A DNA stretch of 8,544 nucleotides from a virus (lineage: Duplodnaviria; Heunggongvirae; Uroviricota; Caudoviricetes), in IMG/VR virus record IMGVR_UViG_2703718859_000013. One strand, given 5' to 3'. Position 1 is the stretch's first letter. The number at the start of each line of letters is the position of its first letter. Under the pieces are notes generated by a model. The model saw nothing but the letters and a program-made list of their open reading frames with translations, had not been told where the DNA came from and searched no databases. Positions 6,577 to 6,941 of the stretch are shown here, piece after piece. A program made the translations under genes and the position numbers.

Positions 6577-6622
6577 AAATCTGCATATCATGATAAGAGT
6601 GGTTACATTGCTACGCTGCTTA

Positions 6623-6646
6623 ACCCGCCGATGCGCGGGTTTTTTT
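6623..6646 (+). terminator. Rho-independent terminator just downstream of Q (candidate tR' or Q-proximal terminator)
   Basis: Stem CCCGC (6624..6628) / GCGGG (6635..6639), 6-nt loop, T7 run 6640..6646. Confidence 0.6.
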
Positions 6647-6826
6647 GTACCCAGAATCCTGTGAGCTATACGGAAAGTACACAGAAAGGAAGGTGCGACC
6701 GCAATTAATAACAAAATCTTAAAAATCGCATATAGCACTATTAGTTTTCTAAATATTGTATATTTTAAGTATTGCAGGATGACCCTGTAACGAAGTTTGC
6801 GTAACAGCATTTTGCTCTACGAGTTT

Positions 6827-6856
6827 GCCAGCCTCCCCCAGTGGCTGGCTTTTTTT
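6827..6856 (+). terminator. Second rho-independent terminator between Q and stx1A (candidate tR')
   Basis: Stem GCCAGCC (6827..6833) / GGCTGGC (6843..6849), 9-nt loop, T7 run 6850..6856. Confidence 0.6.
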
Positions 6857-6941
6857 ATGTCCGTAACATCCTGTGTATCAATAAATGTTGTTGTCTACGT
6901 ACGTCAAGTAGTCGCATGAGATCTGACCAGATATGTTAAGG

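Follow-up and report, generated by a model that had tools for sequence, protein, structure and literature searches.

The Q-to-stx1 interval of a Shiga toxin phage is the known StxS small-RNA locus, with a predicted promoter-proximal terminator

What is transcribed between the antiterminator gene Q and the toxin gene stx1A of a Shiga toxin phage, and where does such a transcript end? In the 8,544-nt stretch of phage DNA analysed here, which we call the window, Q ends at position 6576 and stx1A starts at 7084, and the interval under study comprises the first 284 nt 3' of Q. A preliminary description had placed two intrinsic terminators here, separated by an AT-rich, promoter-like stretch, and had suggested that one of the promoter-terminator pairs may encode the equivalent of the regulatory small RNA StxS. 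The interval is indeed the known StxS locus, which has been published and annotated already, and the element itself is not new. With a probability of about 0.9, the window represents the late-gene control region of a Q933-type Stx1 phage and contains the stxS1 small-RNA gene.

A sequence search with 6400..7200 returned 99.9% identity to Escherichia phage phiSTEC1589-Stx1c and 98% identity to the classical Stx1 phages VT1-Sakai, BP-4795, CP-1639 and Ss-VASD, and over the narrower section 6560..6865 the identity to VT1-Sakai as well as to Stx2a phages amounts to 97-98%. The toxin encoded downstream is Stx1c-like. Q belongs to the Pfam family PF06530 (Phage_antitermQ; E = 1.3e-51, 174 bits) and gives a distant match of ~80 residues to the solved Q21 protein (E = 8.6e-7). 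The elements at which late transcription would begin are the following:

6103..6576, plus strand: antiterminator gene Q, 157 aa according to the 933W and VT1-Sakai annotation; the 144-aa form starts at 6142
6564..6591, plus strand: late promoter pR', with -35 element TTTACG (6564..6569), 16-nt spacer and -10 element TATCAT (6586..6591)
6564..6577, no strand assigned: perfect palindrome TTTACGA/TCGTAAA over the -35 element, followed by an A-run, read directly from the sequence
6596..6621, plus strand: first part of the transcript (AAGAGTGGTTAC...), conserved across a set of 51 distinct cassette relatives
6598, plus strand: inferred pR' transcription start, an A, placed by the 258-nt distance known from Sakai, which puts the RNase E cut in GU/AUU at +173

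The promoter overlaps the Q stop codon. It scores 9/12 against the consensus in a promoter scan and is the sole plus-strand promoter-like match near Q; such matches occur in the region at chance frequency (4 found versus 3.6 ± 2.2 expected), so the call rests on homology and published mapping and not on the consensus. The candidate that the preliminary description had considered weak by eye is exactly the pR' site annotated in 933W and VT1-Sakai, and the equivalent site is labelled in AF125520 (933W), AP000400 (VT1-Sakai) and KR781488. Transfer of the 933W and VT1-Sakai annotations places pR' at 6564..6591, a 'qut' site at 6605..6612 and terminators at 6624..6646 and 6827..6855. The start of the pR' transcript was mapped by dRNA-seq 7 nt downstream of the -10 element (Sy, Lan & Tree, PNAS 2020, PMC7547250).

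The same study, conducted in strain Sakai, describes pR' as active in lysogens and reports a pR' start and a Term-seq 3' end that lie 258 nt apart in the Stx1 and Stx2a prophages alike (PMC7547250). The resulting RNA, StxS_L (258 nt), is cut by RNase E within GU/AUU at +173, releasing StxS_S; this stable 3' fragment, 74 nt long by Northern blot, binds Hfq, activates rpoS and represses stx1B (PMC7547250). The start site, the 3' end, the processing, the Hfq binding and both regulatory effects were thus demonstrated in Sakai by others. The published Sakai coordinates of the start and of the 3' end both appear to be shifted by 135 bases against the positions in NC_002695.2. Projected onto the window, the element consists of the following parts:

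6598..6856, plus strand: StxS_L, the transcript running all the way from pR' to tR', with a length of 259 nt here and an identity of 97% to the Stx1 and Stx2a copies of Sakai
6730..6770, plus strand: AT-rich stretch, 17% G+C versus 46% in the whole window, leading into the RNase E site
6769..6773 (+172..+176), plus strand: RNase E motif GUAUU, cleaved after 6770, the sole GTATT in 6598..6860
6771..6856, plus strand: StxS_S, the small RNA that binds Hfq after processing; its 5' end lies at the equivalent of 6771 by dRNA-seq and of ~6779 by RLM-RACE
6783..6794, plus strand: seed CCCUGUAACGAA, complementary to -115..-103 of the rpoS leader
6827..6856, plus strand: second intrinsic terminator, tR' of the StxS paper, found by folding and annotated in 933W, VT1-Sakai and AP005153

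Counting in Sakai from the equivalent A, one reaches the final T of the second T-tract after exactly 258 nt, which identifies the published tR' with the second hairpin, and the window measures 259 nt owing to one extra T (seven T instead of six). With the start at A6598 and the only GTATT at +172..+176, cleavage falls after +173. The promoter-terminator pair that is equivalent to StxS, as suggested earlier, hence runs from pR' to the second of the two terminators, in agreement with the published length of 258 nt and RNase E cut at +173. This second hairpin, noted earlier about 200 bp behind the first, lies at 6827..6856; its stem joins GCCAGCC (6827..6833) to GGCUGGC (6843..6849) around the 9-nt loop UCCCCCAGU, with seven T at 6850..6856, and folds at -14.5 kcal/mol (z = -2.8). 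It was missed by our terminator scan, which allows loops of 3-8 nt only. StxS_S as a whole folds with z = -3.5, and none of 200 shuffles was as stable.

Nine differences separate the window from Sakai StxS1, namely the extra T and eight substituted positions (6612, 6701, 6727, 6731, 6734, 6760 and 6767-6768), several of which carry the Stx2a-type base. Every substitution lies upstream of the RNase E cut and none of them alters the processed RNA, whose 86 nt (6771..6856) equal the VT1-Sakai copy apart from the one extra T in the tail. At the level of sequence, the window is thus shown to carry the StxS element with the processed RNA predicted to be the same as in Sakai. The 259-nt unit is found at an identity of at least 95% in 291 phage records; of the 5,426 complete E. 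coli genomes, 686 contain it, the median copy number being two. This occurrence sets its features apart from chance. A diverged homologue of 6650..6860 was searched for in the phage collection and none was detected there.

The unchanged RNA implies that the effect on rpoS should carry over to this phage. For the seed and the rpoS leader, the predicted duplex comprises 9 + 3 base pairs interrupted by a one-base bulge. Computed without accessibility, the energy of the StxS-rpoS leader duplex is not better than that of shuffled sequences (76/500), and the predicted duplex with stx1B, at -30.0 kcal/mol here versus -33.4 kcal/mol in Sakai, is reached by 48/500 shuffles. We therefore rely on the contiguous seed complementarity and on the compensatory mutants published for StxS. 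The region upstream of stx1B differs from that of Stx1a by several substitutions and by one extra G in the Shine-Dalgarno run, and with its target altered in this way the damping of the toxin may work differently for Stx1c. The Shine-Dalgarno run within 7982..8062 reads GAGGGGGG versus GAGGGGG in Stx1a, and four substitutions of 7982..8062 fall into the 'M1' pairing region given in the StxS paper.

The AT-rich stretch noted earlier is real, with its G+C content of 17%, but its promoter-like character found little support, the best plus-strand promoter match in 6730..6770 reaching only 7/12 (-10 element TATATT at 6759..6764) with no usable -35; published evidence places an RNase E site at the 3' edge of this stretch, instead of a promoter. 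Neither tRNA genes nor Rfam families were recognized here: ARAGORN found no tRNA gene across the whole 8,544-nt window, and in 6400..7200 there was neither an Rfam tRNA match nor any family at its gathering score. The absence of a cluster like that of 933W had been noted correctly in the preliminary description; as to known ncRNAs, none reaches the Rfam threshold, and by homology the locus is the published StxS. Sub-threshold Rfam matches in 6400..7200 (RprA, Qrr, RyhB, DsrA and others) were considered and none was taken as family membership, as the terminators account for them and, in the case of RprA and DsrA, the shared rpoS seed does so as well.

Elsewhere in the window, Rfam matches were observed on the plus strand at three places. 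STnc100 (RF02076, 98.3 bits) matches 8394..8544 just 3' of stx1B, where it is cut by the end of the window, and may correspond to the small RNA EcOnc42, which the StxS paper places 3' of the toxin genes. Adjacent matches to isrK (54.9 bits, 2842..2915) and to the C4 antisense RNA (71 bits, 2941..3024) form a pair in the early region that resembles RNA pairs of the antirepressor-control type. A full-length match to sRNA-Xcc1 (RF02221, 67.5 bits) lies at 3866..3955.

A further element stands between pR' and the StxS segment:

6622..6646 (+25..+49), plus strand: first intrinsic terminator hairpin, found by terminator scan and folding and annotated in 933W and VT1-Sakai

This is the hairpin reported earlier as immediately following Q. 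Its stem pairs AACCCGC (6622..6628) with GCGGGTT (6635..6641) around the 6-nt loop CGAUGC, is followed by seven T (6640..6646) and folds at -11.9 kcal/mol (z = -2.4), a stability reached by 2 of 200 shuffles. The 933W and VT1-Sakai records label it a "possible rho-independent terminator"; in a term search of the main text of the StxS paper, no hairpin at +25..+49 was encountered (PMC7547250). Scanning the conserved leader motif against IMG/VR yielded the 51 distinct cassette relatives, 38 of which fold into a hairpin at -8 kcal/mol or lower with an immediate T-run starting at +43..+65, compared with 1.3 in shuffled sequences. The stem hardly varies within the main group, and it is complete replacements that are informative, six variants carrying an unrelated hairpin and T-run in place of the first hairpin; among the relatives the loops vary, and one variant has a compensatory C:G to A:T change. 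In 45 of the 48 relatives that lack StxS, the first 330 nt from the start contain no strong terminator besides this one. The toxin-less lambdoid phages Lambda_4C10, ev207 and PhiR30_1 are similar to the window only over 6561..6644, the similarity ending right after the first hairpin, and a second cassette of phage Stx2_499 shares the same section only, next to a Q that is 50% identical to that of the window. The quuD to nmpC region of the K-12 prophage DLP12 showed no cassette homology beyond 9-mers. These comparisons show the first hairpin, as a predicted terminator, to be part of the Q/pR' cassette and not of StxS. It is, judged by its conservation and anatomy, the putative promoter-proximal terminator of this cassette family, which we consider a modest addition to the published picture.

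The other side of the joint is illustrated by the Stx1d prophage of E. coli RM8082, in which an StxS-like segment of 89% identity starts at the position equivalent to window ~6660 and continues to stx1d, and is preceded by a different leader and an inserted gene for a CPBP-family protease. By this variant, the StxS segment has its left joint just 3' of the first hairpin; the right joint lies ~14 nt after the second terminator. The StxS segment would thus behave as a module of its own, attached directly behind the first hairpin, again a modest addition. In the RM8082 segment itself (L136, 1292..1700) the seed is changed (CCCUGUAACGGAG-UU), the terminator stem contains a G-U pair and the loop is different. 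Furthermore, 66 extra bases are inserted in the Stx1d prophage just downstream of the Fur-box-like sequence.

Taken together, the first hairpin may be the original, and perhaps the main, tR', as in phage 21, behind which the StxS segment (~6660..6870), bringing its own terminator, was acquired as a separate module. We hold this combined reading tentatively, at somewhat below even odds; its comparative part is well supported. Were it true, StxS_L would be a read-through product whose dose depends on how leaky the first hairpin is, and the major pR' product of the lysogen would be an RNA of ~49 nt that is easily lost from standard RNA-seq libraries. The predicted competence of the first hairpin as a terminator looks awkward next to an abundant StxS made from pR'. 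Two other explanations were considered. The first hairpin might not terminate in vivo at all and might act as a structural or pause element only, leaving the second hairpin as the sole tR', as drawn in the StxS paper; the mapping put the StxS 3' end at +258, an end at +49 did not come up in a term search of the main text of that paper (PMC7547250), and abundant StxS means that many polymerases pass the first hairpin. This we judge unlikely, given that the hairpin is canonical in anatomy (U7 behind a stem of five G-C and two A-U pairs with a loop of 6 nt), that it is the only strong terminator in almost all relatives without StxS, that some relatives have an unrelated hairpin and T-run substituted for it and that phage 21 has an annotated terminator at the same place. 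RNAs of ~49 nt are, moreover, probably often lost from standard RNA-seq libraries.

Alternatively, the first hairpin might stop essentially all pR' transcripts, as its resemblance to a strong terminator would allow, and StxS_S might come from a promoter of its own within the AT-rich stretch, using TATATT at 6759..6764 and starting at ~A6771. Record AP005153 annotates a -35/-10 pair in this stretch together with the second terminator, and a dRNA-seq call in the Stx2a phage hints at an internal promoter (PMC7547250). The match of only 7/12 and the lack of a usable -35 speak against such a promoter, and so does the 5' end of StxS_S, which was recovered by RLM-RACE without pyrophosphatase treatment, is monophosphorylated and depends on RNase E, as well as the accumulation of StxS_L upon inactivation of RNase E (PMC7547250). 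TATATT is present in the Stx2a allele and in the window, whereas the Sakai Stx1a allele has TGTATT and yet yields about as much StxS_S as the Stx2a allele, which makes an internal promoter a distinctly improbable source. A minus-strand protein of 81 aa (6810..6565; some records call it 'ORF b69' or 'hypothetical protein'), although annotated in AP005153 and others and overlapped by a minus-strand ORF called in the Stx1d prophage, is extremely unlikely to be the product of this interval: no Pfam family matches it, its frame lies antisense across a promoter and a terminator, and it differs from the Stx1d copy in its start codon and in protein sequence (70% identity over 40 residues versus 89% for the DNA), so that there is no excess of silent changes.

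Returning to the identification of the interval as the StxS locus entered from pR', we propose the following course of events. RNA polymerase would start at pR' (A6598) and transcribe the conserved leader; there it may pause and become loadable with Q, an analogy drawn from phage 21 and lambda. When Q is absent, as it is in a lysogen, the polymerase would stop either at the proximal hairpin (~+49) or at the second terminator (+258/259), with termination presumably shared between the two. The longer product, StxS_L, would be cut by RNase E at GU/AUU between 6770 and 6771, and the stable 3' fragment StxS_S would bind Hfq and pair with the rpoS leader, leading to activation of RpoS, and pair near the stx1B ribosome-binding site, leading to damped Stx1. 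With Q, the polymerase would pass both terminators into stx1AB and the lysis genes. The last stretch before the toxin contains two further features:

6956..6974, plus strand: Fur-box-like sequence of the stx1 promoter, a 15/19 match to GATAATGATAATCATTATC, given for context
7084..8031, plus strand: stx1A, from the ORF list and annotation transfer from AP000400, given for context

The stx1 promoter, Pstx1, is Fur-regulated (Sy, Lan & Tree, PNAS 2020, PMC7547250). StxS ties the lysogeny of Shiga toxin phages to the general stress response of the host and holds basal Stx1 down, and the share of termination between the two tandem terminators would set its dose. Recognition of the StxS locus helps with the annotation of this Stx1c-type phage.

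The role of the leader in polymerase pausing and Q loading is modelled on phage 21 and lambda and is correspondingly tentative. The leader is strongly conserved among the relatives and contains a -10-like TACATT at 6604..6609 (+7..+12; 4/6 match). The -10-like element (TACATT/TTACTT) lies inside a small hairpin of the conserved leader at 6599..6614 (+2..+17), which reads GUGGU...GCUAC here and GUGG...CCAC in most relatives. The palindrome over the -35 element could be a candidate variant-specific Q-binding site. Other palindromes occupy the -35 position in related cassettes (TTTACGTACGTAAA, GCGTACGC, GCGGTCCGC, TGTTATAACA, TGGAATTCCA and TTCGTTACGAA).

Phage 21 (OL657228, annotated with Q21, pR'21, QBE, SDPE and terminator) offers a close parallel for the first hairpin, as its Q also belongs to PF06530, its late promoter directly follows Q and its late terminator is annotated at +3..+50 with the T-tract ending at ~+48/+50, as for the first hairpin of the window. 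That hairpin folds at -20.2 kcal/mol, and its annotation cites PMID 1704887. Position and anatomy together mark the first hairpin as the counterpart of the phage 21 late terminator. The direct-repeat QBE of phage 21 (ATTGAGCA/AATGAGCA, taken from the OL657228 annotation) is absent from the window, which has the palindrome over the -35 element instead; the leader sequences are unrelated, and the terminator of phage 21 is followed by tRNA genes, not by an StxS segment. Two tRNA genes (Asn and Thr; L137, 1427..1582) lie there directly after the late terminator. They parallel the cluster of 933W, indicating that tRNA cargo recurs at this position in unrelated cassettes.

In lambda, the short pR'-tR' transcript is the 194-nt 6S RNA, a constitutive by-product of Q antitermination; we know of no trans-acting function described for it. 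StxS resembles it as a constitutive short transcript from the late promoter, and lambda differs by its single terminator and its different Q family.

Within the Stx phages, StxS has the same position directly after a short Q of the 144-aa type, both as stxS1 (Sp15, VT1-Sakai) and as stxS2 (Sp5, 933W-type), and pR', the two hairpins, GUAUU at +172..+176 and the seed are all as in the window. The window departs from the stxS1 system in its Stx1c-like toxin and in the altered region upstream of stx1B. The 933W interval from pR' to stx2 is identical in layout to the window until ~14 nt after the second terminator; beyond this point, 933W and VT2-Sakai continue with a tRNA promoter, ileZ-argN-argO, a further terminator and stx2, whereas the window leads straight, with no tRNA, to the Fur-regulated stx1 promoter.

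Among the small RNAs of the host, the rpoS activators DsrA, RprA and ArcZ act on the same activating region of the rpoS leader as StxS (PMC7547250). The Rfam models of RprA (RF00034; 27.1 versus 70 bits over 6743..6859) and DsrA (RF00014; 16.2 versus 60 bits over 6771..6852) stay below their gathering thresholds, and the complementarity of the seed to rpoS accounts for these weak matches. Rather than a member of their families, StxS is a functional analogue of DsrA, RprA and ArcZ.
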